This document shows positions 25,444 through 55,603 of a DNA stretch of 64,000 bases, one piece after another. The translations under genes and the position numbers were made by a program. Location of the stretch: positions 523,107-587,106 of the forward strand of contig JAQWEN010000001.1 of NCBI GenBank assembly GCA_028704885.1. Reading direction: 5' to 3'. Within the stretch, counting starts at the first letter, position 1; each line of letters opens with the position of its first letter. The notes below the pieces were generated by a model. The model was not told where the DNA came from, ran no database searches, and worked only from the letters and a program-made list of their open reading frames with translations. This DNA comes from Candidatus Shapirobacteria bacterium. GTDB lineage: Bacteria; Patescibacteriota; Microgenomatia; UBA12405.

Positions 25444-26488
25444 GTTGCAAAAGATCTTCGATTGAATTTAGTCGAACTAATTTTGATCTCAATTGTTTGG
25501 CATTGACCAAACCAGAGGCATAAAACAAAAAGTTTTTTCGAAGACTATCAAAACGGCGATTAGGAAAAACTTCCTTAAAAAACTGGGCATGAAGAAGCAT
25601 GGCGGAAAAACGCTCTTTTGGAGTGGCAATATAATCTTTGAAACACCAAGGGTTGCCGCAAGCAGCTCGACCAATTAAAACACCATCGACACCATATTTT
25701 TCACAAAATTCTAAGGCTTGAGATTTAGACTCAATATCACCGTTGCCCAAAATTTTAGTGTTAGTATTTTTGGCTAATTCAACTACATTCTGAATTTCTG
25801 ACCAGTCGGCAGTGCCAGCATAGCCTTGTTTAAGAGTGCGAGCGTGAATAGTTAGAAAATCTAAATCTTGAGCCAATAAAATTGTGGCCCAGGAATCGAT
25901 AATAGATTTATCAATGCCGAGACGAGTCTTAACAGAGATAGTGGGACGAATCCTCTCTGTCCCTTCGGGACATCTCCCTTTAACAAAGGGAGAAATATTT
26001 ATTTCGGAATATTTTTTGTTGCGATTAATTACATTAAGAGTTTTTTGATTAAGACCGAGGTCGGTGATTTTAATTTTATTTTCAAACCAATCATTAATCC
26101 CCTGTTTGGTTTTTTTAATAATTTCAACAGCTAAATCTGGTTTAGAAATTAGAGCAGCGCCGCTACCATTTTGGGTGACGGTTTTGGCGGGACAACCCAT
26201 ATTAATATCAATGCCATCAAAACCTAATTCAGATAAAATAATGGCTGATTTATAGAAACTATCTGGATTTTTGCCAAATAATTGGCCAATAATTGGGTGT
26301 TCTTGATTTGAAAATAAAAGAGTGTCGTACAATTTAACTCCACCATGACTGATGCCTTCGGCACTGACAAATTCAGTAAACATTAAATCCGGCTTGGCGA
26401 TTTGAACTTGGAGTAGACGAAAAGCTTCATCAGTAATTCCATCCATTGGAGAAAGAGCGATGATTGGAAGTTTGTTTATAAAACTCAT
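25421..26488 (-). CDS. dus: tRNA-dihydrouridine synthase (DusB-like)
   Basis: FMN-binding N-terminus (MDGITDEAFR) and catalytic Cys loop (INMGCPAKTV). Carries an in-frame insertion encoded by a palindromic repeat (see the repeat feature). Confidence 0.85.
   Translation of the reverse strand: MSFINKLPIIALSPMDGITDEAFRLLQVQIAKPDLMFTEFVSAEGISHGGVKLYDTLLFSNQEHPIIGQLFGKNPDSFYKSAIILSELGFDGIDINMGCPAKTVTQNGSGAALISKPDLAVEIIKKTKQGINDWFENKIKITDLGLNQKTLNVINRNKKYSEINISPFVKGRCPEGTERIRPTISVKTRLGIDKSIIDSWATILLAQDLDFLTIHARTLKQGYAGTADWSEIQNVVELAKNTNTKILGNGDIESKSQALEFCEKYGVDGVLIGRAACGNPWCFKDYIATPKERFSAMLLHAQFFKEVFPNRRFDSLRKNFLFYASGLVNAKQLRSKLVRLNSIEDLLQLEGDFLS
25943..26000. repeat. Double-hairpin palindromic element, copy A, inserted in frame in dus
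   Basis: gggacgaatcctctctgtcccttcgggacatctccctttaacaaagggagaaatattt. Hairpins GTCCC-TTCG-GGGAC and TCTCCCTTT-AACA-AAGGGAGA. Shares ctctgtcc...ggacatctccc...ggagaaat with copy B at 55030-55080. Confidence 0.65.
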
Positions 26489-27225
26489 TATTTATTTTTT
26501 TTGGATTTGAAGGCAAATTTAGCGCCAACTTTGGAACCAAAATTACGTTGTTTAAAAACAGATGATCTAACATGAAGATCAGAACTAGATTTATATTCTG
26601 GTTTTTGACCTGGCTTTGGTCTAAATTTCTTCTTATTAGGATTTAGATCAGGAAAAAATTTAGGAATATATTCGCCAGTGGTATTTCTATTTAGAGATTT
26701 ACCGACAGAATTGAAAACTGGCTTACCGCCTTTATATTCTCGGGATTTGCTTTTTTCGCCGAAAACCGGAGAATAATTTGATGATGGTCGACTAATAGAT
26801 TGTGGACGAGGTGGATATTGACGATTATCAAGAGATCTTTTTTGGGCTTGATAATCGGAAAGATCACTGTCAGGATGAGGTAAAAATGGCTGAGGTTGAC
26901 GACGATTTGGATGATCTTTTAGAGCTTCTTCATGACGAGCTTGACCTTCGGCGGTTAAAAACGGATCAGCTTCGGCATAATCAACAATTATAGTTCTATC
27001 ACCAATGTAGTAATTATGATATTTGGTTTTAGCACGAATAGCATCGTCAAGATTTTCAAATTCAACAAAGCCGATACCACGACTTTTGCCCCATTGATTG
27101 TGCATGATGCGAACAGAAATAATTTTACCTTCGGCAACAAAAAGGGAAAGTAATTCCCCTTCAGTAAAGCGATAAGGTAAACTGCCGATGAATAGGCGTT
27201 TTGAGACAGGTTTTGGTAATGACAT
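26488..27225 (-). CDS. RRM-type RNA-binding protein with a long disordered basic/Pro-rich C-terminal tail
   Basis: N-terminal RRM with RNP2 (LFIGSL) and RNP1 (KSRGIGFVEF). About 150 aa of low-complexity P/R/S/K-rich tail. Confidence 0.75.
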   Translation of the reverse strand: MSLPKPVSKRLFIGSLPYRFTEGELLSLFVAEGKIISVRIMHNQWGKSRGIGFVEFENLDDAIRAKTKYHNYYIGDRTIIVDYAEADPFLTAEGQARHEEALKDHPNRRQPQPFLPHPDSDLSDYQAQKRSLDNRQYPPRPQSISRPSSNYSPVFGEKSKSREYKGGKPVFNSVGKSLNRNTTGEYIPKFFPDLNPNKKKFRPKPGQKPEYKSSSDLHVRSSVFKQRNFGSKVGAKFAFKSKKNK

Positions 27226-27258
27226 AGATGTTTATATTATACCTGGTAAAATAGATTT

Positions 27259-27885
27259 ATGCTCAGCTATGAAAAAATATTGATTGGAGAGTTAGAAACT
27301 AACTGTTATTTGATCTGGGAAGAAGAAACAAAAGAATGTTTAGTAATTGATCCGGGTGATGATGGAGTGGGTATTAGTGAAGAAATAAATAATAAAAAAT
27401 TAAAAGTTAAAGCTGTATTTTTAACCCATGGCCATTTTGACCATTCAATGGGAGCATTGGATTTAAAATTAATTTACAATGTTGATTTTGGCTGCAGTGA
27501 AAAAGATGCTTTTCTTTTAGATAGACAAGATGAAACAGCTAAACATTTTTTAAAAAAAGAAATTCAAGTGCCTAATTTTATAAAAATAGATATTGATTTA
27601 GATAAAATAAAAAAATTTGAATTAGGAGAAGAAATAATAGAAATTATTAAAACTCCGGGACACACTCCAGGTAGTGTGTGTTTTTACAATAAAAAGAATA
27701 AATTATTGTTTAGTGGAGATACATTATTTGCCGGACTTAGGGGTAGAACTGATTTTAAATACGGATCAACCAAAGAAATATTTAAGAGTCTTAAAAAATT
27801 GATGAAATTAGACAAGAAAACATTAGTTTTACCAGGACATGGAGATGAAACGACAATCGAGAGAGAATCTAGACGTTACCTCTAA
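27259..27885 (+). CDS. MBL-fold metallo-hydrolase (hydroxyacylglutathione hydrolase-like)
   Basis: HxHxDH metal motif (THGHFDH), downstream Asp/His ligands. 208 aa. Confidence 0.8.
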   Translation: MLSYEKILIGELETNCYLIWEEETKECLVIDPGDDGVGISEEINNKKLKVKAVFLTHGHFDHSMGALDLKLIYNVDFGCSEKDAFLLDRQDETAKHFLKKEIQVPNFIKIDIDLDKIKKFELGEEIIEIIKTPGHTPGSVCFYNKKNKLLFSGDTLFAGLRGRTDFKYGSTKEIFKSLKKLMKLDKKTLVLPGHGDETTIERESRRYL

Positions 27886-28059
27886 GATTATCAATAGTTT
27901 CTTCAAAATTTTTGATGTGATCTTGTTTAATACTTTCCAAAAGCTCAATTAAAAGACCGTTGATGTAAGTTTCAATGGCTTTTGATTGTTCTGGAGTTAA
28001 TTTTAGATCTTGGGTTAGTTGTTCAATGGTTTGCATTAATTAGATTATAACATTTGTCG

Positions 28060-28065
28060 TATAAT
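28060..28065 (+). promoter_or_regulatory. -10 hexamer TATAAT 13 nt upstream of the duplicated tRNA-Gln 5' fragment
   Basis: TATAAT at 28060-28065. Its placement relative to the tRNA-like 5' end matches the tRNA-Glu and tRNA-Pro promoters. Confidence 0.3.
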
Positions 28066-28078
28066 AGGTTGTCTTTAA

Positions 28079-28154
28079 TGCTTCGTCGTTGCCGATTCGA
28101 TTAAAGTCGAATCGAGCATCCTCGATCTGAAGGATCGGGACTAATGGTAGGACA
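28079..28154 (+). pseudogene. Duplicated 5' fragment of tRNA-Gln (nt 1-25) split by a 51-nt hairpin-rich insertion
   Basis: tgcttcgtcgt (identical to tRNA-Gln nt 1-11), then a 51-nt insert with two internal palindromes (cgattcga...tcgaatcg; cctcgatc...gatcggg), then ctaatggtaggaca (identical to tRNA-Gln nt 12-25). Similarity ends after the D-arm. Confidence 0.55.
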
Positions 28155-28158
28155 AAAT

Positions 28159-28401
28159 ATGTATTACACTTATGTTTTAATTTCAGTAAAAGACAATTCT
28201 TATTACATCGGTTCAACTTCTAACATTGAACAAAGATTAAACTATCACAATACTGGAAGATCTAGCTACACAAAATTAAAAATGCCGTGGAATTTGGTAT
28301 ACTTTGAGGAATTTCAAACCCTTTCTTTAGCTAGAAAAAGAGAAACACAAATAAAAGCTTGGAAAAGCAGAAAAGCTATTGAAAGATTGATAAAAAAATA
28401 A
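28159..28401 (+). CDS. GIY-YIG nuclease-domain protein (YhbQ/UPF0213-like)
   Basis: MYYTYVLIS...YYIGSTSNIEQRLNYHN...R is a canonical GIY-YIG/URI domain of about 80 aa. The stop codon directly abuts nt 1 of tRNA-Gln. The listed ORF start at 28144 lies inside the tRNA-derived fragment, so the Met at 28159 is the more likely start. Confidence 0.8.
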   Translation: MYYTYVLISVKDNSYYIGSTSNIEQRLNYHNTGRSSYTKLKMPWNLVYFEEFQTLSLARKRETQIKAWKSRKAIERLIKK

Positions 28402-28472
28402 TGCTTCGTCGTCTAATGGTAGGACAGTCGGCTCTGAACCGACTAATTGTGGTTCGAATCCATACGAAGCAA
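28402..28472 (+). tRNA. tRNA-Gln (anticodon CUG)
   Basis: Hand-folded. U1-A72 acceptor (TGCTTCG/CGAAGCA), D-arm GTCT-AATGGTA-GGAC, anticodon stem GTCGG/CCGAC with loop CTCTGAA, T-arm TGTGG-TTCGAAT-CCATA, discriminator A. Confidence 0.85.
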
Positions 28473-28473
28473 C

Positions 28474-29044
28474 AAATATTGGTCGTAAAAAATAGTTTAT
28501 ACGGTAAATTTTGAAAATTACAGTCAAATAAAAAAAGGGCTTAACGTTGGTTTGTTGGTGGGTCGACAGAATGTCACCGCAAAACACGTATAAGCCCTTT
28601 ACTAGGAATGAAATGAGTTTGTGGGGTGGATAATCTGTTTATCATTAACGAGGTATTTAAAATAAAAACTGTTAATGATAACTGAATAAATTGGATTCAT
28701 TGACGGAGAGTGTTAAACGACTAAGTACAGATGCACATCTGTTTGTCGTAACACTACTTTGTCTTTCCCTCTGGAAGAGGAAAATTACCGAATAGGTATA
28801 TTCAGTTTTTTGGCCACGTCCGAGCTTTGGTTTCTCCGCAAAAGAGAAGAAAGTTTGGTTTTAACGGCCCTCCTTTCATAAATGAAAAGAATGAAAATAC
28901 CAGACAACTGAATCAACAATTTGGAAACGATGAAACACGCGCCACTTACTATAACATGAAGGTCAAAGAGCAACTGTTTAGAAGATCATCAAGATGATCT
29001 GATGTAATAATATGGCTTTTTAAAAGGAAAGAAAAGGGGGCAAA
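28474..29044. ncRNA. GC-enriched, highly structured 570-nt noncoding region; candidate large ncRNA or mobile-element remnant. Strand unknown
   Basis: No ORF over about 15 codons on either strand. GC is visibly higher than flanking DNA. Multiple perfect hairpins (aagggctta...taagccctt; gtttatcattaac/gttaatgataac; acagatgcacatctgt). Lies between convergent tRNA-Gln and the LCP gene. Confidence 0.3.
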
Positions 29045-30169
29045 TTAATTTAGATTAGAGGAACTAGTGGCAGTTGGTTGAGAAACAAAATTTTTAATAT
29101 CTGTCCAATTATTTTCGCCTATTTTTGGGATTAAAATAAATTGACCATCAAAACTTTTTGTATCAATTAAAAGATTATTATCGGTGATGGGATAGGACTC
29201 GATTTTGTAGCTTTGGTATTCATCAGCCTTACTAATTAATTGTTGCATTTGTTCTAAATTTATATCGGTAGTTAAATTGCCGGCTAAAGAATTTACAAAG
29301 GGAATTAATTTGGAAATAAAGTTTAAAGAAATAATTTTTTTCTTGAGAGCCTCGATGACTAATTTTTGACGGGCAGAACGATTGAAATCTCCTCCATCTT
29401 CTGGAGAATGACGGGAGCGAACAAATTTTAGAGCCGTAAGGCTATCCAGGTGTTGTAAGCCTTTGTCAAAATGAAGATTTTCATAGCGACAAGTAAACTG
29501 TTCTTCAAGTTTAGAAGCTGACATGGTGGCGGTTAAAGCAGCTATTTCTTCATCGGTTTTACCACAAGGATCATTTATATTTTCTTCAATTGGGTAAAGT
29601 GGATCATTAAAAGTTTTTTGAACATTAACATCAATGCCGCCAAGGGTATCAACTGTTTTTAAAAAACCATTAAAATTAATAGTGGCAAAATTATCAATAG
29701 AAAAACCCAAAACTTGAGACAAGACGGTTTTTGACATTTGACCACCACCAGCAAGACCAGTAAATTGAATTTCTTTATTTGGATAACGTTTATCATCAAG
29801 ACCAATAGTATAAGCCGCATTAATTTTTGACATTTTAGTAATACCGATAGCAACGGGAATTGGAATCCATAAATCACGAGGAATGGAAATTAATTTAATT
29901 TTTTTTTCGAGAGGAATAAATTGAGCTACTAAAATCGAGTCAGTTAGAGTGCCACCTTCGTGAACGCCACCGCCATAACCCATCAGAGCAATAGCAAATG
30001 GTTTATTAGGATCAGGAGTAGGAGTAACAGTGGGAGTAATTTCTTTAGAAATAGGATTTTTGTTTACTTTAACAACAACTTGGCGGTATTTTATAAAAGC
30101 AAAAATAGCAAAAAAAACAGCCACAGACAGGTTGAAAATAATAAAAACTATAAGAATTTTCTTGGCCAT
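29045..30169 (-). CDS. LytR-CpsA-Psr (LCP) family cell-wall polymer transferase
   Basis: N-terminal TM anchor, conserved LCP core (LISIPRDLWIPIP..., RSRHSPEDGGDFNRSARQ). Confidence 0.85.
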   Translation of the reverse strand: MAKKILIVFIIFNLSVAVFFAIFAFIKYRQVVVKVNKNPISKEITPTVTPTPDPNKPFAIALMGYGGGVHEGGTLTDSILVAQFIPLEKKIKLISIPRDLWIPIPVAIGITKMSKINAAYTIGLDDKRYPNKEIQFTGLAGGGQMSKTVLSQVLGFSIDNFATINFNGFLKTVDTLGGIDVNVQKTFNDPLYPIEENINDPCGKTDEEIAALTATMSASKLEEQFTCRYENLHFDKGLQHLDSLTALKFVRSRHSPEDGGDFNRSARQKLVIEALKKKIISLNFISKLIPFVNSLAGNLTTDINLEQMQQLISKADEYQSYKIESYPITDNNLLIDTKSFDGQFILIPKIGENNWTDIKNFVSQPTATSSSNLN

Positions 30170-30185
30170 TGGTTTATATTTTAGC

Positions 30186-31007
30186 TTATTTTTTGACTCG
30201 AATTCGATTCAAATATTTTTTTTCAAAACCATCGACGAAGTCTTTTTTGGATAATGGAACAAATTTTTGATAGATTTCAAAAAAATCTACCCATTGATCT
30301 AGATTTAATTGACTTGGTTTCAATTGATTAATTTTTAGGCTTTTATTAATGTTTTTAAATTGTTCATAAGAAAAAACTTTTTTATAAGCGTTGAAAATAT
30401 CTTCTTTCCATTGATTAAAACCAAAAATTACAAAATCGCGAAATTGTTGATAAATATCGGAGTCAATTGGATTTTGATCTTTTAGAATAAATTTAATAAA
30501 ACTAATATTTATTTGGGGTTTTGGGGTAAAAGCAGTTCGGTCAATTTGGCCTAAAATTTCAATATCGTAAAAAATTTTAGCAAGAATGGAATTTTGAGTT
30601 TCAATTTCAGCACCGACATATTTTTGAGCTGCTTCGGTTTGAAGAATTAAATAAATTTCAGTCGGTTTGTTTTCTGATTTGAGTAATTTATCAATAATTT
30701 CAGCGGTAATACTGAAAGGAATATTAGAAAAAATTTTATATGGTTTGTCTGGTAAATTCCAAATTAAAAAATCTTTATTGATAAGTTTTAATTTAGGGTC
30801 TTGGTTAAATTTTTCCAAAAGTCCTTGATATAAATCAGAGTCTTTTTCAATGGCAATTACCTCTTTAGCCCGGGAAAGTAATTGTTTAGTTATGATTCCC
30901 CTGCCTGGACCAATTTCGACAACTAAATCACTGGAATTAATAGAGCTAGCATTTAAAAGCTCTTTGACGACAAAAGGATCTTTAATAAAGTTTTGAGAAA
31001 GCAGCAT
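30186..31007 (-). CDS. rsmA: 16S rRNA (adenine1518/1519-N6)-dimethyltransferase RsmA/KsgA
   Basis: SAM-binding motif VVEIGPGRGIIT and NIPF motif. 273 aa. Confidence 0.9.
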   Translation of the reverse strand: MLLSQNFIKDPFVVKELLNASSINSSDLVVEIGPGRGIITKQLLSRAKEVIAIEKDSDLYQGLLEKFNQDPKLKLINKDFLIWNLPDKPYKIFSNIPFSITAEIIDKLLKSENKPTEIYLILQTEAAQKYVGAEIETQNSILAKIFYDIEILGQIDRTAFTPKPQINISFIKFILKDQNPIDSDIYQQFRDFVIFGFNQWKEDIFNAYKKVFSYEQFKNINKSLKINQLKPSQLNLDQWVDFFEIYQKFVPLSKKDFVDGFEKKYLNRIRVKK

Positions 31008-31537
31008 TAAAATTCTTCTGGTGGTAAATATTCTTCACCGGAATCACTAGAAACTTGATTGGCTTTGAGCCAAAGAACATAATCACAACCAGTGGCTTTT
31101 TTAGCTTCTCGATCCCAACCAGAGGTAGAGCATTTTTTCATTTTTTTACCATTGGCAGTAGTGAAAAGAACTAAAGGTTGGCCACATTTTGGACATTTTT
31201 CGTCTAGATTTTCAGTTGTACCATTGATCCATTCAACATAATCACAACCTTCAACTTTTTTAGTTTCTTTATTCCAGGTACCAGCACTACATTTCTTCAT
31301 TTTTTTACCAAATCGGGTAACTTGAAGAATTAGAGGAGCACCGCATTTAGGACATTTTTCGTCTAATTGTTGAGGTTCAACTTCGAGCCATTTAACATAA
31401 TCACAACCTTCGGTTTTATGGGTTTGAGGATTCCAAGAACCTTGGGAACAACGTTGAAGACGTTTACCAGTTGGAGTTTCAGTTACTTCACTTAATGGAG
31501 AATTACATTTTGGACAGAGATCTGTATTTTGAGTCAT
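31007..31537 (-). CDS. Triple tandem zinc-ribbon protein (topoisomerase-type C4 zinc-finger-like repeats)
   Basis: Three repeats of about 55 aa, each CPKCxxPL...GKKMKKCS..W.......GCDYVxW. The repeats are also visible at DNA level. Confidence 0.6.
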   Translation of the reverse strand: MTQNTDLCPKCNSPLSEVTETPTGKRLQRCSQGSWNPQTHKTEGCDYVKWLEVEPQQLDEKCPKCGAPLILQVTRFGKKMKKCSAGTWNKETKKVEGCDYVEWINGTTENLDEKCPKCGQPLVLFTTANGKKMKKCSTSGWDREAKKATGCDYVLWLKANQVSSDSGEEYLPPEEF

Positions 31538-31556
31538 ATTAATTATAGTAACACAA

Positions 31557-32285
31557 TTATTTTTGAGAGTTAGTTTTTTCAGCCATTAAATTGGCAACCC
31601 TTAATAATGAATCAAAAGTACCAGCATCTTCCCAAAGGGTATTAAAAACATTAACTTTTAATTCACCGTTTTTGAGATAAATATTATTAAGGTCAGTAAC
31701 TTCGATTTCACCACGAACAGATGGAGCTAAATTTTTAGCATATTCAACCACTCGATTATCATAAGTGTAAAGGCCAACAACGGCGTAATTACTTTTTGGA
31801 TTAACTGGTTTTTCTTCAATGGAAACGGCTTTCATATCTTTATCAAATTCAACCACACCAAAACGTTCTGGATCAGGAACCTGTTTGGCAAAAACCATGG
31901 CACCACCTTTGAAATTTTTAATTTCATTAGAAAAGTCTTGATCAAAAATGTTATCACCCAAAATCATAGTGACATCATCGTCACCGATAAACTCATCACC
32001 AATGATAAATGCATCAGCCAAACCTTTTGGTTCTTTTTGAACAGCATAGCTAAAATGAGCACCGAATTCTTTACCGTCACCTAAAAGATTTAAAAAATGA
32101 CCAGAATAATCCGGAGCAATGATAATTAAAATTTCAGTAATACCGGCTTTAATTAAAGTTTCGATTGGGTAAAAAATCATCGGTTTATTGTAAACTGGGA
32201 GAAGTTGTTTTGAAGTAATGGCAGTTAGAGGACGTAAACGGGTGGCTTTACCGCCAGCTAAAATAATTCCTTTCATATATATCAA
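31557..32285 (-). CDS. Sugar-phosphate nucleotidyltransferase (glucose-1-phosphate thymidylyl/uridylyltransferase-like)
   Basis: N-terminal GxGxR motif ([16 protein letters not shown]). 242 aa. Confidence 0.75.
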
Positions 32286-36402: not shown

Positions 36403-36927
36403 TTGATAAAAATGAATAATATAAAAAAAATTCTTCATTTTTTATTTGGAACAGTTACATGGCTGGCCATAGGGATATTAATAATATCCCTATTGGCCGG
36501 TTTTTTGTCTAGTTCCAGTGTTTTAGGTAAATATCATTTATATATAGTGCAATCTGGATCAATGGAACCATCAATTATGACTGGTGATATTATTATTACC
36601 AGTTCTCAAAGAGACTATAAAAAAAATGAGGCTATTACATTTACTGATCCATCAATTGGTATTGTTACTCACCGAATTTGGGATATAACTGGTGATGGAA
36701 AAAATAAACGATTTTTGACAAAAGGTGATGCTAATCGCTCTGTTGATAGTAATAATATTTCTTTGTCACAAGTTATTGGAAAAGTAGTTGGTGTTTTGCC
36801 TAAATTGGGATATGTGGTGGTTTTTAGTCGTAAACCGCTTGGAGTGTTGTTGCTGATAGGAATACCAGCTGTTGTAATTATTTTTGAAGAAATTTTTAAA
36901 TTAAAAAAGGCAATTAATTCACAGTGA
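36403..36927 (+). CDS. sipW: Signal peptidase I, SipW-like (S26B, ER/archaeal type)
   Basis: Catalytic Ser box (VQSGSMEPSI), TxxGD, conserved His (THRIWD), C-terminal TM anchor. Confidence 0.8.
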   Translation: MIKMNNIKKILHFLFGTVTWLAIGILIISLLAGFLSSSSVLGKYHLYIVQSGSMEPSIMTGDIIITSSQRDYKKNEAITFTDPSIGIVTHRIWDITGDGKNKRFLTKGDANRSVDSNNISLSQVIGKVVGVLPKLGYVVVFSRKPLGVLLLIGIPAVVIIFEEIFKLKKAINSQ

Positions 36928-46632: not shown

Positions 46633-46914
46633 ATGGCAAAAAAATTATTTATTGGTAATCTACCTTTTGCGATTAATCAAGATCAATTAAGGGAAATATT
46701 TGCTGTTTATGGATCAGTAGCTTCAGTAAATATTGTGATAGATAAATTTTCCGGCAGATCCAAAGGTTTTGGATTTGTGGAGTTTGAAAAAGATGAAGAT
46801 GCTGCAAAGGCAATTGAAGGATTGAATAATAGTGAACAAATGGGAAGAAATATTGCTGTGAAAGAGGCTATTCCTAGACCGGAACAGCCATTAGTGGAAC
46901 AACCTGCTGCTTAA
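46633..46914 (+). CDS. RRM-type RNA-binding protein (glycine-poor, cyanobacterial Rbp-like)
   Basis: RNP2 LFIGNL and RNP1 KGFGFVEF. 93 aa. Confidence 0.8.
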   Translation: MAKKLFIGNLPFAINQDQLREIFAVYGSVASVNIVIDKFSGRSKGFGFVEFEKDEDAAKAIEGLNNSEQMGRNIAVKEAIPRPEQPLVEQPAA

Positions 46915-46941
46915 AATCCCCTTTCCTTCGTTTTACTCAGG

Positions 46942-46972
46942 ATCTCCCCTTGAAGAAGGGGAGATTTTATTT
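46942..46972 (+). terminator. Rho-independent terminator of the RRM gene; also copy C of the double-hairpin repeat family
   Basis: Perfect 10-bp stem ATCTCCCCTT/AAGGGGAGAT with GAAG loop, followed by TTTTATTT. The stem-loop is nearly identical to the hairpin embedded in miaA (TCTCCCCTT-GATG-AAGGGGAGA). Confidence 0.65.
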
Positions 46973-48330: not shown

Positions 48331-49194
48331 CTATTTTTTCTTTTTATTTCTTTTGAAGAAAAGAACTAGAGGAATGGCAACACCGGTTGACGAATAAGTT
48401 CCACAAACTACACCAATTAAAAGAGCAGTGGCAAACCATTTAGTAGTGGAACCACCAAGAACAACCAAAGAAAGTAACATAAAGACAATAGTCATGGAAT
48501 TATTAATAGATCGGCTTAAAGTTTCAGTGACAGCTTGATTGGCAAGATTAACCCAATCTAAGGTTAAATTTTTTAACTTTAATTCACGAATACGATTAAA
48601 AGTAACGACGGTGTCATGGACGGATGAAGAAAGAGTGGTTAAAAGAGCAGTTACAAAAAGAGAATCTAACTCGGCACCAAAAAAATGACCTAAAATAGAA
48701 AAACTTCCAATTAAAATAAAAGTATCGTGAAGCATGGCAATAATAGCACCAGCACCAAAAGAGAAATCTTTGAAACGACGACCGATAAAAAGAAGTAAAA
48801 ACAACGACGATAAAACAATGGCCATAACTGTTTTTCGTAATAATTCTTTTCCTAAGGTGGCACCAAGAGTTTCGAATTTTAATTCCTGATAATTTTGATC
48901 TATCTTTTTGATTTCATCATTTAAAATATTTTTTTGATCAGAAGTAATGTCTTTAAACTCCAAATGATATTTGGTGTTATTTTTGGTAATAACTAATTTA
49001 TCAATGTTATTTTTAGTAAAAATTTCGGTTATTTTTGAATTCTCTGGGGCAGATGGTAAATTTAATTCCCAAACAGCACCGCCAACGAAATCGATTGATG
49101 GTTTAAATCCCCAAAAAACTATTGATAGTAACGAAGAAATTAAAAGAAGTGAAGAAATAATTAAAAATAATGGCCTAAATTTCATGATGTTCAT
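48331..49194 (-). CDS. secF: Protein translocase subunit SecF
   Basis: 6-TM SecF topology with conserved periplasmic P1 region. Follows secD directly. Confidence 0.9.
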   Translation of the reverse strand: MNIMKFRPLFLIISSLLLISSLLSIVFWGFKPSIDFVGGAVWELNLPSAPENSKITEIFTKNNIDKLVITKNNTKYHLEFKDITSDQKNILNDEIKKIDQNYQELKFETLGATLGKELLRKTVMAIVLSSLFLLLFIGRRFKDFSFGAGAIIAMLHDTFILIGSFSILGHFFGAELDSLFVTALLTTLSSSVHDTVVTFNRIRELKLKNLTLDWVNLANQAVTETLSRSINNSMTIVFMLLSLVVLGGSTTKWFATALLIGVVCGTYSSTGVAIPLVLFFKRNKKKK

Positions 49195-50561
49195 TGTTCG
49201 ATTTTCTCCTTAGCTAAAACTCTTAATAAATTTCGAGTGACAAAAACACCGGTAAAAATACCAATACCAATTCCCAGAATTAGGGTAACAGCAAATCCCC
49301 TAACCATACCAGAAGTATTTAGAAAACTCCAATTAAAAGGATTAAATAAAATTAGACCAGTAATGATAGTACAAGCATTGGCGTCTTTAATTGAATCCCA
49401 AGCTCGACCAAAACCTAATTCCATGGCATTGTTCCAATTTTTACCTTTGCGAGTTTCTTCACGCATTCTTTCAAAGATTAAAATATTACTGTCAACGGCC
49501 ATACCAATTGATAAAATAAAACCGACAACCCCAGGAAAAGTTAAAGTAATAGGAATTAATCTATATAAAGCTAGAGTAATCAGTCCATAAATAATTAAAC
49601 CGATGTCAGCAATTAAACCAAGCTTGCCATAATTTCCAATCATAAAAAATGAGACTAAAATTAGACCAACAACACCAGCAAAAATCCCTTTATTAATGGA
49701 ATCTCTGCCAAGAGTGGCATCAATTTGTGATTGCTGGATTAGATTAATTGATAGAGGTAAAGCGCCGGCATTTAGCTGAACAGCTAATTCTTTGGCTGAT
49801 TTTGTAGTGAAACTACCACTAATAACTGCCTTACCATCGGTAATTTCGGTTTGAACAGTGGGAGGAGAAGTAATAGGATAATCGTCAATTAAAATAGCAA
49901 TTCTTTTGTTTAAAAATTCTTTGGTAGCAGCAGCAAATATTTTTGATCCTTCTTCATTAAATTCTAAGGAAACTTCTGGTTCGGAATTATTGGGATTAAT
50001 AGTGACAGAGGCTTTGGTTAAATGGGAACCATTAAGACCAGTGTCTTTAGTAAAAACATCATTAAAAGTGGCTGAGGCGGTGGCTTCTGGGGCTAATTCA
50101 ACCTCGCCTTTGAATTTTAATTGAGCAGTGGTGCCAATTAATTTGATAGCACTAGAGACGTCTTCAACACCAGGTAAATCCACTTTAAGTCGGTATTGAT
50201 TTTCTTGTTTAATAATTTGAACATTTGTTTCACTAATACCAAAAAGATTTATTCTTCTTTCAATATTACTTTTTAGTGATTCTAAGGCAGAAGAAAGATC
50301 TTCTTTTTTAATCTTAGTAGTATCAATGTCAAAAGTTAAAGAAGCACCACCGGCAAGATCGAGACCAAATTTAAGATCGAGATTTTTTTTGAATTTTTCA
50401 GAACCAAAACTAAAATCCGGACGATAAAAAGTGTGCTGCCAATTTATCTTTCCTAAATTGATACTAATAGGAATTTTTTTAGGGAAATTAATAATTAGAC
50501 AAACAAATGTCAATCCTAAAATAGTCCAAAAAATTCTGATGGTTTTGTTCTTATTTGGCAT
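49191..50561 (-). CDS. secD: Protein translocase subunit SecD
   Basis: N-terminal TM helix, large periplasmic domain, C-terminal 5 TM (GLDLAGG..., FTLPGVVGFILSIGMAVDSNIL). Confidence 0.9.
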   Translation of the reverse strand: MPNKNKTIRIFWTILGLTFVCLIINFPKKIPISINLGKINWQHTFYRPDFSFGSEKFKKNLDLKFGLDLAGGASLTFDIDTTKIKKEDLSSALESLKSNIERRINLFGISETNVQIIKQENQYRLKVDLPGVEDVSSAIKLIGTTAQLKFKGEVELAPEATASATFNDVFTKDTGLNGSHLTKASVTINPNNSEPEVSLEFNEEGSKIFAAATKEFLNKRIAILIDDYPITSPPTVQTEITDGKAVISGSFTTKSAKELAVQLNAGALPLSINLIQQSQIDATLGRDSINKGIFAGVVGLILVSFFMIGNYGKLGLIADIGLIIYGLITLALYRLIPITLTFPGVVGFILSIGMAVDSNILIFERMREETRKGKNWNNAMELGFGRAWDSIKDANACTIITGLILFNPFNWSFLNTSGMVRGFAVTLILGIGIGIFTGVFVTRNLLRVLAKEKIEQ

Positions 50562-50563
50562 AA

Positions 50564-50770
50564 TTACTTAGAACCAATGAAGGAAAGTTGGCGGGGATGT
50601 CCAGAAAAAATATAGCTAATTGAAGCTTTACTTTTATTAATTTTAACCAAAACCATATCCCCTTCTTTAATATTAAATTCTTTAATTGATTTAGAAGGAA
50701 TAGTTAGGGCTAAACTATTTCCAGTTTTAATAACTTTTCTTGCTTGAGTCATTTTTTTAAATACCAGCAA
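50564..50770 (-). CDS. AbrB/MazE/SpoVT-type swapped-hairpin DNA-binding protein
   Basis: Motif KVIKTGNSLALTIPSKSIKEFNIKEGDMVLV is a classic AbrB/MazE fold signature. About 62 aa from the internal Met. Confidence 0.6.
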   Translation of the reverse strand: MLVFKKMTQARKVIKTGNSLALTIPSKSIKEFNIKEGDMVLVKINKSKASISYIFSGHPRQLSFIGSK

Positions 50771-51362
50771 TTTCTGAGGAACTACCTATTATAACGATTG
50801 GACAGCTTAAAAAAAAGTCGACAATAAATTGATCTCTTTTTTGTTTGCGCATTTGAAATTCACTTTTATCCATAACCATATAATTAATTTCGTGGCCGCG
50901 AATTTCTTCTTCTTGTTTAACTAAAATACCAACTTCTTTAAGGGAAAACAAATCACCGACAATAATTAAGTCAATACCGTCTTCGTTTCTTTTTTCACCG
51001 ACAGCGAATTTGTAATTATATAAAACTAATTTTATCGGACTTAGAGTTTCATTTTTATGCTGAAGTTTTAAACCAAGTCCAGAATTTTTATTAGCTAATA
51101 TTAAAAGATCGTAAAAAATTGGAGATTGTTTATCAGCCCAGTAATAGAGACGATTACCACGCCATTCTGATTCAATAATTCCAGCTTTTTTTAGATTATC
51201 TAATTCGCGACGAACTGAATTAATTTCCTCTTCAGTCAAACGAACTAATTGACGGACATAATAAATCTCTTTTGGGTTACTAAAAAGAATTGTAATTAAT
51301 TTTAGTCTGGTTTGAGAAACTAATAACTGTTTAAGACTAGTTTGAATTTTCATAAGAAACAC
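50757..51362 (-). CDS. Winged-helix transcriptional regulator with a C-terminal domain resembling a minimal nucleotidyltransferase
   Basis: N-terminal HTH (TRLKLITILFSNPKEIYYVRQLVRLT), C-terminal ..KRNEDGIDLIIVGDL. Overlaps the AbrB-like gene by 14 nt. Confidence 0.45.
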   Translation of the reverse strand: MFLMKIQTSLKQLLVSQTRLKLITILFSNPKEIYYVRQLVRLTEEEINSVRRELDNLKKAGIIESEWRGNRLYYWADKQSPIFYDLLILANKNSGLGLKLQHKNETLSPIKLVLYNYKFAVGEKRNEDGIDLIIVGDLFSLKEVGILVKQEEEIRGHEINYMVMDKSEFQMRKQKRDQFIVDFFLSCPIVIIGSSSEIAGI

Positions 51363-52590
51363 TGGTGTTTAATGGTAATATTTCAACCCAAATATTACCA
51401 GGGATAAAATTAACCTCTTTATTGCTACTGTCTTTAAATATGGTTCTGGCAATTCGATTGGCTTTTGACCAAGTAATTTCAGTCTTGGTGCCATTTTGGA
51501 ATAAAATTCCTTTACCAGTGCCAATCATTTCATAAAGATTATGGCCATGTTCATCAATAGATCGACTTTCTTTTGTATATTGAATAACTATATTTTTGGC
51601 GGTAATGGCTTTTTGGGTATTAAAGTCGATGTGTTCTTTACCGCCATTACTTCGGGAATAAAGATTTAAAGATGGGTCATATTTCCAAGAAACAGAATAA
51701 GCCTTATAACCAGACCAGAAATCGAAAGCAATGGTTGATGAAGAACCAGCGGAAGTATCTTTTTGGGTAAATTTCCAAGCCTGATAAGATTTATCCCAGG
51801 CAGTTTTTTTGACTTCAGTCATATTAGTAAGGCCGCGATTGGCAGCAATATTGTAAAGTTCGCTACTAGAACAATACATAGTGTGTTCAGTGGCTCTATC
51901 TTGACCAGTTCGATCTGGTTCACGACGACAAGCCTTGTAAGATAAAGAGAATTGACTTAAATCGCCCCAAGTGCCTTGATTATTCCAACCGTATTTGGCA
52001 ATTTGTTCGATGGCCTGAGCTTTGGTGTTAGTAGTACAAGGACTTTTGGCATCAGCAGCACTACAGTTAGCACCACCAACATGGTTATAAAGAGGATAAT
52101 CAGCGTATTCGGAGGCAATATCTAAGAAATAAGTTCTAGCTGAACGAACTGGGCCAACATCATATTTATTTTCTGAGTCAGCTTCGGTAGCAACAATTCC
52201 ACAATAAAAAACACCCATAAATCGGGTAATACCACCTTCGGCGACAGCTTCGTAAACAATATCGGCTGATTGTAAACCGGATTGAGGTCGAGCCTCTTCA
52301 TGATTTTCAATCATGACGGTTAATGGTCGTCTTTTTGACCAAATAGCTTTTTCTTCTTTGGTATAAAGTTGACCATTAAGAGGACAGATTTCAGTTTTTG
52401 GACCGGAAAAAGCGGATGTTTTAGATGAAAGGTCGCCAGTTTTTTCATCTTTGGTAACTTTATTACCACTAGGAGAAAGTGAAATTTCTGAACCAGAAGG
52501 AATTAAGAAATCAAATAAATAATAAGAAATACCGGTAATAAATAAGAATACGCCTAAATATCCTATATTTTTTAATATTTTTTTATCCAT
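51337..52590 (-). CDS. Secreted or membrane-anchored hypothetical protein (possibly DUF3048/YerB-like lipoprotein)
   Basis: N-terminal TM/signal segment, then a large hydrophilic domain of 417 aa. Family assignment is a guess from size and architecture only. Confidence 0.3.
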   Translation of the reverse strand: MDKKILKNIGYLGVFLFITGISYYLFDFLIPSGSEISLSPSGNKVTKDEKTGDLSSKTSAFSGPKTEICPLNGQLYTKEEKAIWSKRRPLTVMIENHEEARPQSGLQSADIVYEAVAEGGITRFMGVFYCGIVATEADSENKYDVGPVRSARTYFLDIASEYADYPLYNHVGGANCSAADAKSPCTTNTKAQAIEQIAKYGWNNQGTWGDLSQFSLSYKACRREPDRTGQDRATEHTMYCSSSELYNIAANRGLTNMTEVKKTAWDKSYQAWKFTQKDTSAGSSSTIAFDFWSGYKAYSVSWKYDPSLNLYSRSNGGKEHIDFNTQKAITAKNIVIQYTKESRSIDEHGHNLYEMIGTGKGILFQNGTKTEITWSKANRIARTIFKDSSNKEVNFIPGNIWVEILPLNTSVSYENSN

Positions 52591-52597
52591 TTAAAAA

Positions 52598-52948
52598 TTA
52601 ATTTTTAATAGTTTTAACTATAGCGGATTTTTCTTCCTTTGACAAAGTGATATTTTCACCTAATCCATTTTTGACAGGTTTGGCATAAATTCTAGTAATA
52701 TCACGGTTATGGAGTGAAGTAATGATGGCTCCAGAGTTATTTTTATCTAAAATAGTCAGGATAAAGCTTTGATCACCACCAACATCGTCAAAAGGATTAA
52801 ATCTAGTTATGCCTATTTTAAGGCTATTATCTAATTTATCTAAATCTACAGCTTTATTTTTAGAATTATTTTTAATATAAACTAAGTACGTTAGGTAGCA
52901 AAGCCACAATAAATTGATTATTAATATTAAATATATTAAGAAAGACAT
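52598..52948 (-). CDS. Small membrane-anchored hypothetical protein
   Basis: 116 aa with an N-terminal hydrophobic helix. No motif recognised. Confidence 0.3.
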   Translation of the reverse strand: MSFLIYLILIINLLWLCYLTYLVYIKNNSKNKAVDLDKLDNSLKIGITRFNPFDDVGGDQSFILTILDKNNSGAIITSLHNRDITRIYAKPVKNGLGENITLSKEEKSAIVKTIKN

Positions 52949-53000
52949 CGATTACTAATTGTAGCAAAACAATATGCTATACTGGCGATAGAAACACATA

Positions 53001-53108
53001 ATGAACGAAAATAAATATATTAAAAAAGATTTATTAAGAAGTTTGATTTTAAGCGTGATTTCAATTGGGATTATCATAGTTATTTACTACCTAAAAAATG
53101 GTTATTAG
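53001..53108 (+). CDS. Candidate 35-aa single-TM micropeptide (not in the ORF track)
   Basis: ATG...TAG encoding MNENKYIKKDLLRSLILSVISIGIIIVIYYLKNGY. Weak RBS. Sits in an otherwise empty intergenic region. Confidence 0.2.
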   Translation: MNENKYIKKDLLRSLILSVISIGIIIVIYYLKNGY

Positions 53109-53141
53109 AAATTATTATTTTTATAAGGGGGGTGAAAATTA

Positions 53142-53318
53142 ATGCCAACAATTAAATTTTATAACGTTAAATCACGCAAATCTATCGAAATTGACGTAAG
53201 TAAAGTAGAAAAAGTTATGTTGAAAAACGGTAGACCAGCAGCTCAAACTATTGATCCAGAAACTGGAACCAAAATGTTTAAAATCTTATCAGCCGCTGAT
53301 GCAGCTTTATTGAAATAA
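53142..53318 (+). CDS. 58-aa small basic protein resembling archaeal Sul7d/Cren7 SH3-fold chromatin proteins (not in the ORF track)
   Basis: Strong SD (AAGGGGGGTG) 8 nt upstream of the ATG. Followed by a perfect rho-independent terminator. Sequence MPTIKFYNVKSRKSIEIDVSKVEKVMLKNGRPAAQTIDPETGTKMFKILSAADAALLK aligns by eye with Sso7d ([24 protein letters not shown]...) and Cren7 (...DPETGKYFRHKL). Confidence 0.5.
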   Translation: MPTIKFYNVKSRKSIEIDVSKVEKVMLKNGRPAAQTIDPETGTKMFKILSAADAALLK

Positions 53319-53340
53319 TAAAGAAATAGATTTAAGCTTA

Positions 53341-53376
53341 AACCCCCCGAAATTTCGGGGGGTATTTGTTTTTATA
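53341..53376 (+). terminator. Rho-independent terminator
   Basis: CCCCCCGAAATTTCGGGGGG perfect GC-rich hairpin followed by TATTTGTTTTT. Confidence 0.85.
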
Positions 53377-53394
53377 GATATTTAAGGCTATAAT
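53366..53394 (+). promoter_or_regulatory. Promoter candidate for RNase P RNA
   Basis: TTGTTT (53366-53371), 17-nt spacer, TATAAT (53389-53394). Lies 4-7 nt upstream of the P1 5' end. Confidence 0.4.
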
Positions 53395-53397
53395 TTA

Positions 53398-53662
53398 GAT
53401 ATCCTAAAGAGATTGAGAGGCTTATCCCGATTTCTAACGAAATCGCGGAAGGAAAGTCCGGACCACAAAAAGCACAGAAGTCCATACGGACCAGGGCGTA
53501 AGCTTTGGGCGCTGCTACAGAGACGAGAAATGTGAAACGCGCATCCTTCTGGTGGAAATCTCAAGATGAAACGTTAATATCTAGCTTTTGAGAGTTTCAG
53601 GTAGAGAGAGTAGATTGATGGCCTCTAAACAGAATCCGGCTTATCAATGTCTTTGGGATATT
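53398..53662 (+). ncRNA. rnpB: RNase P RNA (rnpB), unusually short (~265 nt)
   Basis: Universally conserved P4 halves GGAAAGTCCGGAC (5') and ACAGAATCCGGCTTA (3'). P1 pairing between atatcctaaagagattga (53399-53416) and tcaatgtctttgggatat (53645-53662). Internal GTGAAAC-type P11/P12 junction. Confidence 0.75.
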
Positions 53663-53663
53663 T

Positions 53664-54641
53664 TTATTCCGATTCTTTAGAAAGACCCTTAACAACGGCT
53701 TGGATAGTCAAAAAAAGTGGAATAGCTAAAAGAGCGCCAACAATTCCAGCTAATTGACTGCCGGTGATAATTAAAAGAATGGTGACCAATGGATTTAGGC
53801 CAACAGTACTTCTCATTATTTTGGGAACAATAAAATTGTTTTCTAGTTGTTGAACTAAAACCCCAAAAATAACAGTAAAAATGGCAGTTAAAGGTGAAAT
53901 TGTTAAAGCAAAAAGTCCGGCAATAACAGTCGTAACAATTGGACCAATATTGGGAATTGCTTCGAGCAAACCAGCAATAATAGCTAATGGAAGGGCATAT
54001 TTTAAACCAAGAATTAAATAACCGACATAGGAAAGAAGTCCAATAATGAGCATTAATAGAAGCTGAGCATTAACCCAACTACCAAGACTTGATTCTATAT
54101 TATTCATTATTCTTAAAAACTTTATCTTGCCTTTTTCACCAAAAAAATTGTCACCATATTTAGGAAAATTATTTTTTTCCAATAAAAGATAAAAAGTAAT
54201 GACGAAGATAATTAAACCAGAAAAAATATTTGAAGCTAATGAAACAGCAATTTTAGCAATATTTGAGGGAATAGTTTCCAAAATCTTAAATTGAGAAGAT
54301 AAATCGATAGTATTTTCGCTAAATATTTTGACGTTTTGAATAATTTGAGGCAAACTGTTAATTAGACCGGCAGTTTGTTCAATTAAAATTGGAATTATTC
54401 CGGCAATAGCAAAAGAAACAGCAGCAATAATTAAAAGATAAACAATTAAAATAGCAAATACTCTGGGGATTTTTATTTTTTCAAGTTGACGAACTACTGG
54501 ATTTACAGCCTCCATTAAAACAAAACCAACAAAAATTAAAACAAGGATACTTCTTATCTGCCAAAAAAAGGCCAGAGCCAATAAAAAAGCAACGGTAAAA
54601 ATTACGGTTTTGTGAGAAATTTCTATTTTTCTGGTTTTCAT
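53664..54641 (-). CDS. AI-2E family transporter (PerM/YhhT-like permease)
   Basis: 8-TM protein with the C-terminal AI-2E signature (LENNFIVPKIMRSTVGLNPLVTILLIITGSQLAGIVGALLAIPL). Confidence 0.7.
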   Translation of the reverse strand: MKTRKIEISHKTVIFTVAFLLALAFFWQIRSILVLIFVGFVLMEAVNPVVRQLEKIKIPRVFAILIVYLLIIAAVSFAIAGIIPILIEQTAGLINSLPQIIQNVKIFSENTIDLSSQFKILETIPSNIAKIAVSLASNIFSGLIIFVITFYLLLEKNNFPKYGDNFFGEKGKIKFLRIMNNIESSLGSWVNAQLLLMLIIGLLSYVGYLILGLKYALPLAIIAGLLEAIPNIGPIVTTVIAGLFALTISPLTAIFTVIFGVLVQQLENNFIVPKIMRSTVGLNPLVTILLIITGSQLAGIVGALLAIPLFLTIQAVVKGLSKESE

Positions 54642-55603
54642 AATTTATTGTACCATTCGGAAACTAAATTAAAAATTTTATCCTTAAACATAGGAAAAGT
54701 AATGTCAAAAAAAGAAGCTGTATTGGAATATCTGGATTTAAAATAAGTACTTTGGCGGCGGGCATCACTGTGTTCGGCATAACGCCATTTTTGAAGACAG
54801 GTGTTTAGTAGAGACGTTGCATGCAACGTCTCTACATCTTTGTTTTGAAAATATGGTTTGAGGCATTGGTAAGCAGCAATTTGAAGACCTGGATCGGACC
54901 AAGAATATTTTTTTAACAAATTTTTTATTTCATCAAAAAAGCCAATGTCTAGGCGCTTTTGAACACGGGTATTGATACGGTCATAAAGAAAATCGAGAGG
55001 AGCGATGAGAGAAATATGTAAAATATCAAACCCCTCTGTCCTACTGGACATCTCCCCTTGATGAAGGGGAGAAATTTTTGATAATTTTATTTCTATTTTT
55101 CTGGTTAAACGATAGTGATTATTAATATCAGAATGGTTTAATTTAGAAAAATTTTCTTTATCTAAAAAATTATAAATTTTTTGTAAAGTTTTGACTGATA
55201 ATTTTTTTGAAATTAAGCGCCAAAGTTTATTCGGCTTAATAGAAAAAGTATCGTAATTTTGATTAATCAAAGAATCTAAATAAAAACCGCTACAACCAAC
55301 CAAAACTGGTAATTTGTTTTGAGAATGAAGTTTATTGATTATTTCTAGACCAGCTTTTTGAAATTGAGCGACAGAAAATTTTTGATCTGGAGTAATTAAA
55401 TCAATTAAATGAATTGGAGTTTCACCAGGCTGATCTTTGCCAGTACCAATATCAAGACCTTTATAAATTTGACATGAATCAGTGGAAACTAGTTCGCCAT
55501 GGTATATTTTTGCCAATTCTACGGCTAAATCGGTTTTACCGGTAGCAGTCGGACCGGAAATAATTAAAATTTTGTTAAACATTGATTCTAAATTCAACCA
55601 CAT
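54638..55603 (-). CDS. miaA: tRNA dimethylallyltransferase MiaA
   Basis: P-loop (ISGPTATGKTDLAVELA) and DSxQ motif (VSTDSCQIYKGLDIGT). Contains an in-frame palindromic-repeat insertion and a 28-bp perfect palindrome. Confidence 0.9.
   Translation of the reverse strand: MWLNLESMFNKILIISGPTATGKTDLAVELAKIYHGELVSTDSCQIYKGLDIGTGKDQPGETPIHLIDLITPDQKFSVAQFQKAGLEIINKLHSQNKLPVLVGCSGFYLDSLINQNYDTFSIKPNKLWRLISKKLSVKTLQKIYNFLDKENFSKLNHSDINNHYRLTRKIEIKLSKISPLHQGEMSSRTEGFDILHISLIAPLDFLYDRINTRVQKRLDIGFFDEIKNLLKKYSWSDPGLQIAAYQCLKPYFQNKDVETLHATSLLNTCLQKWRYAEHSDARRQSTYFKSRYSNTASFFDITFPMFKDKIFNLVSEWYNKL
54808..54835. repeat. 28-bp perfect palindrome inside the miaA coding sequence
   Basis: gtagagacgttgcatgcaacgtctctac equals its own reverse complement. 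Encodes VETLHATSL. Centre is GCATGC. Confidence 0.8.
55030..55080. repeat. Double-hairpin palindromic element, copy B, inserted in frame in miaA
   Basis: cccctctgtcctactggacatctccccttgatgaaggggagaaatttttg. Hairpins GTCC-TACT-GGAC and TCTCCCCTT-GATG-AAGGGGAGA. Encodes KISPLHQGEMSSRTEGF, versus copy A which encodes NISPFVKGRCPEGTERI. Confidence 0.65.

Follow-up and report, generated by a model that had tools for sequence, protein, structure and literature searches.

We identified a family of short double-hairpin elements in a 64,000-nt stretch of DNA (positions 523,107-587,106 of contig JAQWEN010000001.1, assembly GCA_028704885.1; hereafter the window), which comes from the AT-rich genome of a Candidatus Shapirobacteria bacterium, a member of the Microgenomates within the candidate phyla radiation (CPR), and has a GC content of ~32%. 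Three copies were found: copy A inside dus, copy B inside miaA, and copy C between an RRM-domain gene and the gene for the CCA-adding enzyme (cca). The element is ~50-58 nt long and encodes 16-19 aa where it is genic. It occurs in multiple copies, both between and inside genes, and its presence at a given site varies among close relatives; it is locked to one strand, its pairing is conserved, and its genic copies lie in frame in poorly ordered loops. We suggest that the three copies belong to a mobile element that is dispersed and non-autonomous, colonizes the AT-rich genomes of Shapirobacteria and other CPR bacteria and probably moves by a strand-specific route, and we give this reading, with its full mechanism, a probability of about 0.6.

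All three copies share one layout on the minus strand: hairpin 1, hairpin 2 and a tail. Hairpin 1 consists of TCTCCCYTT, a 3-4-nt loop and AARGGGAGA; hairpin 2 is a short, variable GC stem (TGTCCC-GAA-GGGACA in A and TGTCC-AGTA-GGACA in B); the tail, GAGRGGWTT, is non-palindromic. Copy C kept hairpin 1 and the tail (AAGGGGATTT), and its hairpin 2 is a weak remnant with a 4-bp stem and an 11-nt loop, leaving only one good hairpin; its homology to the family follows from hairpin 1, the tail and its covariance model score (see below). A preliminary description of this DNA had placed the three copies where we found them and assigned two hairpins to each, which is correct for A and B and incorrect for C. 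The compensatory changes it proposed are present in hairpin 1 (T-A versus C-G), whereas the difference between GTCCC/GGGAC and GTCC/GGAC is a change in stem length. Copies A and B keep their host reading frames open (355 aa in dus and 321 aa in miaA), as that description had stated, and encode the peptides ISPFVKGRCPEGTERI and ISPLHQGEMSSRTEGF, respectively. Hairpin 1 is 21 nt long in A and 22 nt in B, and hairpin 2 is 15 and 14 nt long; the 1-nt indel compensation noticed earlier was therefore real, and is most simply viewed as survivorship of in-frame insertions.

The elements clearly exceeded chance expectation. Dinucleotide shuffles of the window gave an expectation of zero matches to the shared patterns. 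The calculated folds of copies A and B had energies of -21.9 kcal/mol (z -2.8) and -23.3 kcal/mol (z -4.6), and B and A contained the second and fourth most stable 44-nt segments of the 64 kb (-22.8 and -20.0 kcal/mol; mean -4.2, sd 2.9). Adjacent GC-rich double hairpins were present in the window in A, in B and once within the RNase P RNA, and were absent from 20 shuffles. We built a covariance model of 55 positions and 14 pairs from a seed of 24 CPR copies that excluded copy C. With filters off, it returned three full-length matches in the window, all on the minus strand (B, 65.9 bits; A, 56.8 bits; C, 44.7 bits), so that C was recovered without having contributed to the seed (E~1e-14). The model detected no fourth copy in the 64 kb, the next match having E=0.13. 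A search of the whole window against Rfam 15 at the gathering score gave no family match to the element; at E<=1 there was nothing over A or B, and just two chance-level matches over C.

Copy number, pairing and orientation

When applied to the related loci that we fetched (designated by L numbers), the covariance model detected 102 copies at E<1e-6 in 73 sources, many of which had been missed by the regular expression, in agreement with the earlier expectation of further genic and intergenic copies. They occur as single units, sometimes clustered (four in L018, four in L097 and three in L027). Under weak ascertainment, we counted three copies in the 64-kb window, two copies other than those in dus in ~120 kb around dus, and 12 in 452 kb around cca, six of the latter at the site of copy C; extrapolation would place the number per genome on the order of 10-40. 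In Shapirobacteria-type loci, ~40% of the copies were within open reading frames (ORFs) of at least 100 aa. Further genic copies were found in ORFs of 211-787 aa, and the hosts included a TsaC-TsaE fusion, TsaD, the CCA-adding enzyme, a TPR protein and an O-antigen-ligase-like protein. Frame and strand differ among the hosts, so that one and the same DNA encodes unrelated peptides. Copies in the tRNA-maturation genes for the TsaC-TsaE fusion, TsaD and the CCA-adding enzyme were mostly antisense (L027:5951-7114; L097:5339-6481; L164, L140 and L171).

The same layout was detected in cultured Flavobacteria (L107, L114), Synergistaceae and Margulisiibacteriota. These non-CPR copies were mostly or wholly intergenic (genic in 0/14 cases in Bacteroidota and 4/19 in the rest), and no strand bias was visible. 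Copies in Dehalococcoidia formed a distinct class. An apparent spread to Gammaproteobacteria was rejected, as DnaA of L061 was 76-79% identical to DnaA of Shapirobacteria, including that of the window's genome. The records titled 'uncultured Gammaproteobacteria' (L012, L017, L028, L041, L042, L044, L061, L066-L072, L081, L082, L086, L087, L098 and L121) look mislabelled, a point checked on L061 only: they are low-GC contigs, and YidC of L061 is of a short, 262-aa type. Carriage by phages was not supported either, with two matches in 2.9 million viral contigs.

The preliminary description had proposed that structure rather than protein is selected, and this view is supported by pairing that is conserved while the sequence varies. 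In a model-fitted alignment, which leans towards the structure of the model, 87% of the cells were paired compared to 78% in shuffles (0/500 reached the observed value), and 124 cells were changed on both sides compared to 47 expected. Covariation at fixed columns (MAFFT) could not be relied on, as loops of 3 and 4 nt put the copies out of register, and we therefore added a register-free test of each copy. By this test, hairpin 2, with 81 distinct sequences among 96 copies, had a mean of 4.7 Watson-Crick pairs versus 2.6 in shuffled sequences. A hairpin-1 position that the search pattern left free was occupied by C-G, T-A or T.G (25 times) and never by C.A, indicating that pairing is kept only on the strand that reads from hairpin 1 to the tail. 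Either selection or the spread of one successful subfamily may account for the one-strand pairing.

This same strand was the C-rich strand in 63 of the 67 CPR copies: in 26/26 copies (18/18 loci) labelled as Shapirobacteria, in 25/29 from the mislabelled Shapirobacteria-like records and in 12/12 from the cca loci, the 452 kb of which had been chosen only for the CCA-enzyme gene. The strand lock holds whether a copy is sense or antisense to a gene. With respect to base composition, the plus strand of the window is G-rich throughout (replication-type component ~0.16, coding component ~0.12), with 44 of 64 genes on the minus strand, and the sign of the skew in L061 does not change across dnaA. 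Strand disparity over the whole chromosome has been described in Microgenomates (PMC7143001), which the skew of the window and of L061 resembles. We considered a reading in which the element follows the lagging-strand template and dropped it, since the C-rich strand carries most of the genes and the skew passes dnaA without a flip.

Site turnover and consequences for host genes

Insertion polymorphism was evident at the dus site. We aligned 120 Dus homologs (67-88% identical), in which the site is the stretch between 'KKYS' and 'PTISVKTRLG'. It was empty in 43 sequences and carried the window type (SPFVKGR...) in 14, xPVKGGARRAEG in 21, SPSSRGx in 13, PFLKGE in 4, VETxHATSL, which is encoded by an unrelated palindrome, in 18, and other peptides in 7. 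On a neighbor-joining tree built without the site, at least 61 changes of state were required, and pairs of Dus proteins with 96-97% identity outside the site had different elements. At the DNA level, the site was empty in L001 and L003 (...AAAGACAAAAAAATAAAACCA...), and contained the same element as the window in L002, the same hairpin 1 with a longer hairpin 2 in L007, hairpin 1 of copy C joined to a different hairpin 2 in L004, a further variant in L006, and the palindrome GTAGAGACGTTGCATGCAACGTCTCTAC in L005. L005 and L007 have 92.6% DNA identity over 2.2 kb, with a break confined to ~100 nt at this site and slightly raised divergence over ~150 nt around the swapped element.

Similar turnover was observed at the two miaA sites and at the site of copy C. 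Copy B, at miaA site 1, is also present in the closest relative, L188, with one base changed, whereas L189 is empty and L190 has another variant. At site 2, the window contains a palindrome of a second family (GTAGAGAC...GTCTCTAC), which bears GTAG, a motif absent from the double-hairpin family; the same palindrome is found in L190 with a compensatory change in its inner stem, a double-hairpin element takes its place in L188, and the site is empty in L189. GTAG palindromes also occupy the dus site in L005 and, in a related form, the C site in L131, so that the two families rival each other for the same sites. The C site was examined in 59 loci that had been fetched via the CCA-enzyme gene, a look-up of identical proteins for the RRM gene having returned the same strain only. 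The spacer between the RRM and CCA genes, in which copy C stops 27 nt short of the CCA-enzyme gene, is 82 nt long in the window and 17 nt in the closest relatives L129 and L130 (92% and 87% identical), where the C site is empty and the context of the stop codon unchanged. L139 had hairpin 1 only, L136 and L140 had degenerate double hairpins, and in L134 a full new element abutted the right arm of an older hairpin; other loci had unrelated terminators. Long A-runs were present at all four empty sites that were compared.

These comparisons agree with the earlier proposal of lineage-specific insertions: the segments are polymorphic, and many MiaA homologs, like the 43 Dus homologs, lack them. The solved Dus and MiaA structures from unrelated bacteria do not contain these peptides. 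Compared to Thermotoga maritima Dus (1VHN), residues ~116-180 form a lineage-specific extension of ~50 aa, at the end of which the element lies; site 1 of staphylococcal MiaA is occupied by an unrelated loop of comparable length, and the VETLHATSL segment is absent from Staphylococcus epidermidis MiaA (3D3Q). About 17 added residues had been claimed, which matches the length of the encoded peptide and overstates the net gain relative to empty alleles (~12 aa in Dus and ~4-5 aa at miaA site 1), as the element replaces part of a pre-existing loop.

In the predicted structures, the inserts fell in low-confidence loops, as had been anticipated. The Dus model (predicted local distance difference test score, pLDDT, 80.7) has values below 50 for residues 164-177, between helix 148-158 and strand 183-189, and the MiaA model (pLDDT 77.8; 314-aa numbering) for residues 172-181, between helix 156-170 and strand 186-193. 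In TIM barrels, loops that lead from a helix to a strand face away from the active site; by this general rule, the Dus insert should be opposite the active-site face. On the transcript level, A, B, C and the GTAG palindrome show a hairpin followed by a T-run on the plus strand only. The pattern is thus antisense with respect to dus and miaA and runs in the sense direction of the RRM gene. Transcripts of dus and miaA are therefore predicted to read through. Copy C, located where a terminator is expected, is likely the intrinsic terminator of the RRM gene, a role that the preliminary description had also proposed and that is predicted from the same pattern, at a site that is empty in the closest relatives.

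Table 1. Copies of the element, their parts, and host genes in the window (numbering of the 64,000-nt stretch)
Feature	Position	Strand	Description
Copy A	25946-25999	-	Full double-hairpin element, in frame inside dus; sequence and model match
Copy A, tail complement	25949-25957	+	AATCCTCTC
Copy A, hairpin 2	25958-25972	+	TGTCCCTTCGGGACA
Copy A, hairpin 1	25973-25993	+	TCTCCCTTTAACAAAGGGAGA
Copy B	55025-55077	-	Full double-hairpin element, in frame inside miaA (site 1); sequence and model match
Copy B, tail complement	55028-55036	+	AAACCCCTC
Copy B, hairpin 2	55037-55050	+	TGTCCTACTGGACA
Copy B, hairpin 1	55051-55072	+	TCTCCCCTTGATGAAGGGGAGA
Copy C	46912-46969	-	Intergenic family member, starting at the RRM stop codon; model match
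Copy C, tail complement	46913-46923	+	AAAATCCCCTT
Copy C, degenerate hairpin 2	46924-46942	+
Copy C, hairpin 1	46942-46965	+	ATCTCCCCTTGAAGAAGGGGAGAT, then TTTTATTT
Second-family palindrome	54808-54835		Perfect, 28 nt, GTAGAGACGTTGCATGCAACGTCTCTAC, in frame in miaA (VETLHATSL)
dus	25421-26488	-	tRNA-dihydrouridine synthase (PF01207), 355-aa ORF; element peptide at residues ~165-180
miaA	54638-55603	-	tRNA dimethylallyltransferase, 321-aa ORF; copy B at loop site 1, second palindrome at loop site 2
RRM-domain gene	46633-46914	+	93 aa; 3' end abutted by copy C

Several other features of the window were observed. Its most stable 44-mer (-26.5 kcal/mol) is a palindrome with an 18-bp stem at 36459-36502, inside a signal-peptidase-like ORF (36403-36927), where it encodes the membrane segment WLAIGILIISLLAG. 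For the RNase P RNA (53408-53652, plus strand), the best-scoring Rfam model was an archaeal one, RF00373 (102 bits), and not a bacterial model, and a strong GC hairpin is present just upstream of it (53342-53363). Three diverged tandem repeats with a 159-nt period and 70-75% identity were found in a coding region at 31065-31441; they are unrelated to the element.

Proposed origin and movement of the element

We propose that the element inserts into A-rich tracts or pre-existing hairpins, as suggested by the long A-run at every empty site and by the nested appearance of L134. Movement would involve a single-stranded, strand-specific intermediate and an enzyme supplied in trans, similar to REP-associated tyrosine transposases (RAYTs) acting on repetitive extragenic palindromes (REPs), or to IS200/IS605 elements. 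This is the weakest step; the single-stranded intermediate is suggested by the strand lock and by T.G being the only mismatch. Both a strand lock and pairing on one strand are products of single-strand HUH/Y1 systems such as REP-RAYT and IS200/IS605. Selection would then retain only in-frame insertions in permissive surface loops that do not terminate the host transcript, the terminator-like hairpin and T-run being read on the opposite strand only. A copy that lands just past a gene on the opposite strand, such as C, would serve as an intrinsic terminator. A precedent for the enzyme in CPR is found in a distant relative (L170:7902-8691), where a gene for a 230-aa RAYT-like Y1 protein (IS200-like, PF01797) lies between two identical hairpins, TCCACCTCTAAGGTGGA, in a REPtron-like unit.

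Several observations weigh against this proposal. Neither the window nor ~0.9 Mb of related loci yielded a transposase, with the exception of L170, the hairpins of which are unrelated to the element; the search consisted of Pfam analysis of 10 small ORFs of the window and 10 ORFs of element-dense loci, and a motif scan of the ~0.9 Mb. Comparisons of empty and filled sites revealed no consistent target-site duplication, and the ends of the element (AAG/TCTCCC... and ...GAGRGGWTT) contain no terminal inverted repeats. There was no clear target motif: A and T predominate in the left flanks, and AAG or AAGRYT is found in many of them without being universal. The copy number is low, with three copies in 64 kb of the window and a density of ~1 per 40-75 kb in loci that had been chosen on other grounds, and the at least 118 loci obtained by a scan of one genome per species were picked by the search pattern itself. 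Moreover, the orientation counts include orthologous and clustered copies that are not all independent, and the excess of T.G could have been inherited from one successful subfamily instead of being selected many times. Finally, the GC skew, being one-sided without a flip at dnaA, does not identify the leading strand and hence does not support a 'replication-coupled' movement.

The main rival to this proposal is a scenario without any transposase, which we consider possible and, on balance, unlikely. Here, terminator-like hairpins with flanking A- and T-runs would be copied into A-rich tracts or other hairpins by template switching in the course of replication or repair, homogenized by gene conversion among copies and spread among strains by homologous recombination after DNA uptake, with slippage-prone A-runs in permissive loops acting as hot spots. 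The missing transposase, target duplication and inverted terminal repeats, and the long A-runs at all four empty sites, are expected in such a scenario. Hairpin 1 resembles ordinary terminators, e.g., those at 57852-57879 and 53342-53363; the new element of L134 is fused to half of an old hairpin; and the ~150 nt of slightly raised divergence around the swapped element resemble a conversion tract. However, the three-part layout with its non-palindromic tail recurs at dozens of unrelated sites in several lineages, which exceeds what copying by microhomology predicts, and strict orientation on a single strand would need an added assumption.

An even more speculative version of mobility, to which we give little credence, regards the loops of dus, miaA, tsaC/E, tsaD and cca and the RRM-CCA spacer as landing pads for cassette exchange, in which at least two hairpin families (double hairpins and GTAG palindromes) would be swapped by strand-locked, single-strand hairpin recombination in CPR genomes whose strands are asymmetric over the entire chromosome. 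If so, the surface loops of tRNA-modification enzymes would be continually diversified and terminators supplied by the same process, and the near-identical double hairpins of cultured Flavobacteria and other phyla would belong to a class of mobile hairpins that is old, widespread and undescribed.

It is improbable that the hairpins are structures selected by the host (antisense terminators, mRNA stabilizers or processing sites, or polar motifs) rather than selfish DNA. The copies in the window are terminator-like on the plus strand, antisense to dus and miaA, their pairing is conserved on one strand, and their genome-wide co-orientation resembles that of polar motifs; nevertheless, many close relatives are empty, unrelated palindromes occupy the same position, the same element occurs at unrelated loci, and no Rfam match covers A or B even at E<=1. 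That the peptides themselves are selected modules, such as loops that bind RNA or a partner, with palindromy being incidental, is largely refuted: hosts are often tRNA-modification enzymes (Dus, MiaA, TsaC-TsaE, TsaD, CCA-adding enzyme), yet different frames and strands yield unrelated peptides, intergenic copies exist, the peptides are modeled as disordered, and hairpin 2 keeps its pairing and not its residues. Chance similarity or an assembly artifact, in favor of which only the shortness of the element can be cited, is refuted by the expectation of zero matches and by the presence of elements in independent assemblies (NCBI, ENA, JGI, Logan).

Relation to known repeats and significance

The preliminary description regarded the in-frame copies as the hallmark of Rickettsia palindromic elements (RPEs). 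Families RPE-1 to RPE-10, as summarized in PMC10969869 and PMC3733652, are ~100-150 bp long, encode 30-50 aa and are specific to Rickettsia, with dozens of genic copies in R. conorii. The Shapirobacteria element works in a similar manner: it is palindromic, resides in a small AT-rich genome, inserts in frame into housekeeping genes including those for tRNA modification, leaves the host protein intact and is also found between genes. It is not a member of the RPEs, being a third of their length and from another lineage, and it further differs in its low copy number, double hairpin and tail, CPR host, strand lock and rapid swapping at hot spots. Thus, it shares in-frame, multi-copy insertion with RPEs and is set apart by length (50-58 nt) and lineage.

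Intragenic small palindromes and REPs are known outside Rickettsia in several phyla (PMC3733652, PMC10969869). REPs and REPINs associated with RAYTs, including intragenic GTAG/CGTC REPs, are also small GC-rich hairpins, located mostly just downstream of genes and in some cases in frame (PMC3733652). As in our element, G.T stem pairs mark one strand and no target duplication is formed. Typical REPs are imperfect palindromes of 20-40 bp, tagged at one end by GTAG or CGTC and mostly extragenic, and the cognate RAYT gene is often flanked by them. In contrast, the Shapirobacteria family has no GTAG/CGTC tag or inverted dimers, has tens rather than hundreds of copies and is ~40% genic. The window and the element-dense loci yielded no RAYT, and the hairpins that flank the RAYT-like gene of L170 are unrelated. 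A GGGGWSAS motif occurs in terminal inverted repeats next to RAYT-like genes (PMC3733652); it is only approximately present in the element (GGGGAGAT), and we regard this as a lead, not as evidence.

The element was also compared to other classes of small mobile DNA. Miniature inverted-repeat transposable elements are characterized by terminal inverted repeats and a target duplication, neither of which the element has. The IS200/IS605 family reportedly transposes as single strands and has miniature derivatives; like the element, it relies on subterminal hairpins in place of inverted repeats, leaves its target unduplicated and has an orientation tied to one strand. For the element, however, no cognate TnpA turned up in the loci searched and no clearly conserved target tetranucleotide was seen, and it is far shorter than a left and a right end combined. 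Double-hairpin elements (DHEs) are said to occur in Allomyces mitochondria. GC clusters of yeast mitochondria, such as GC42 (PMC4478555), and repetitive hairpin elements (RHEs) of sponges (PMC2800124) belong to the same comparison. All of these are GC-rich single or double hairpins in AT-rich reduced genomes, with conserved stems and variable loops, presence/absence variation among strains and no known element-encoded enzyme; however, they are organellar and their sequences are unrelated, so the similarity is an analogy and not homology. The pneumococcal SPRITE is a dispersed terminator-like repeat (PMC10969869). It shares with ordinary terminators and with our element a hairpin followed by a T-run, and copy C is placed as a terminator would be; ordinary terminators, however, do not form a conserved three-part repeat inside genes. 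We know of no SPRITE reported in frame within a housekeeping gene.

The earlier statement that such elements are undescribed in CPR agrees with the searchable literature, in which we found no CPR report, although this amounts to no more than absence of evidence. What is new here is a CPR host, a double hairpin laid out in three parts, a strict strand lock and a very rapid exchange of different palindromes at the same few sites. If the element is mobile as proposed, even CPR genomes of less than 1 Mb, which tend to be regarded as almost devoid of mobile DNA, would carry active selfish palindromes in essential proteins. Such elements would account for variable lengths and odd low-complexity peptides in CPR protein families, could serve as strain markers, and would be a trap for annotation and alignment. 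The strand lock may provide an entry point to the as yet unexplained, one-sided asymmetry between the strands of Microgenomates chromosomes, and the hundreds of empty, filled and swapped alleles of a single loop would represent a natural data set on site choice, protein tolerance and the origin of new loop sequence.

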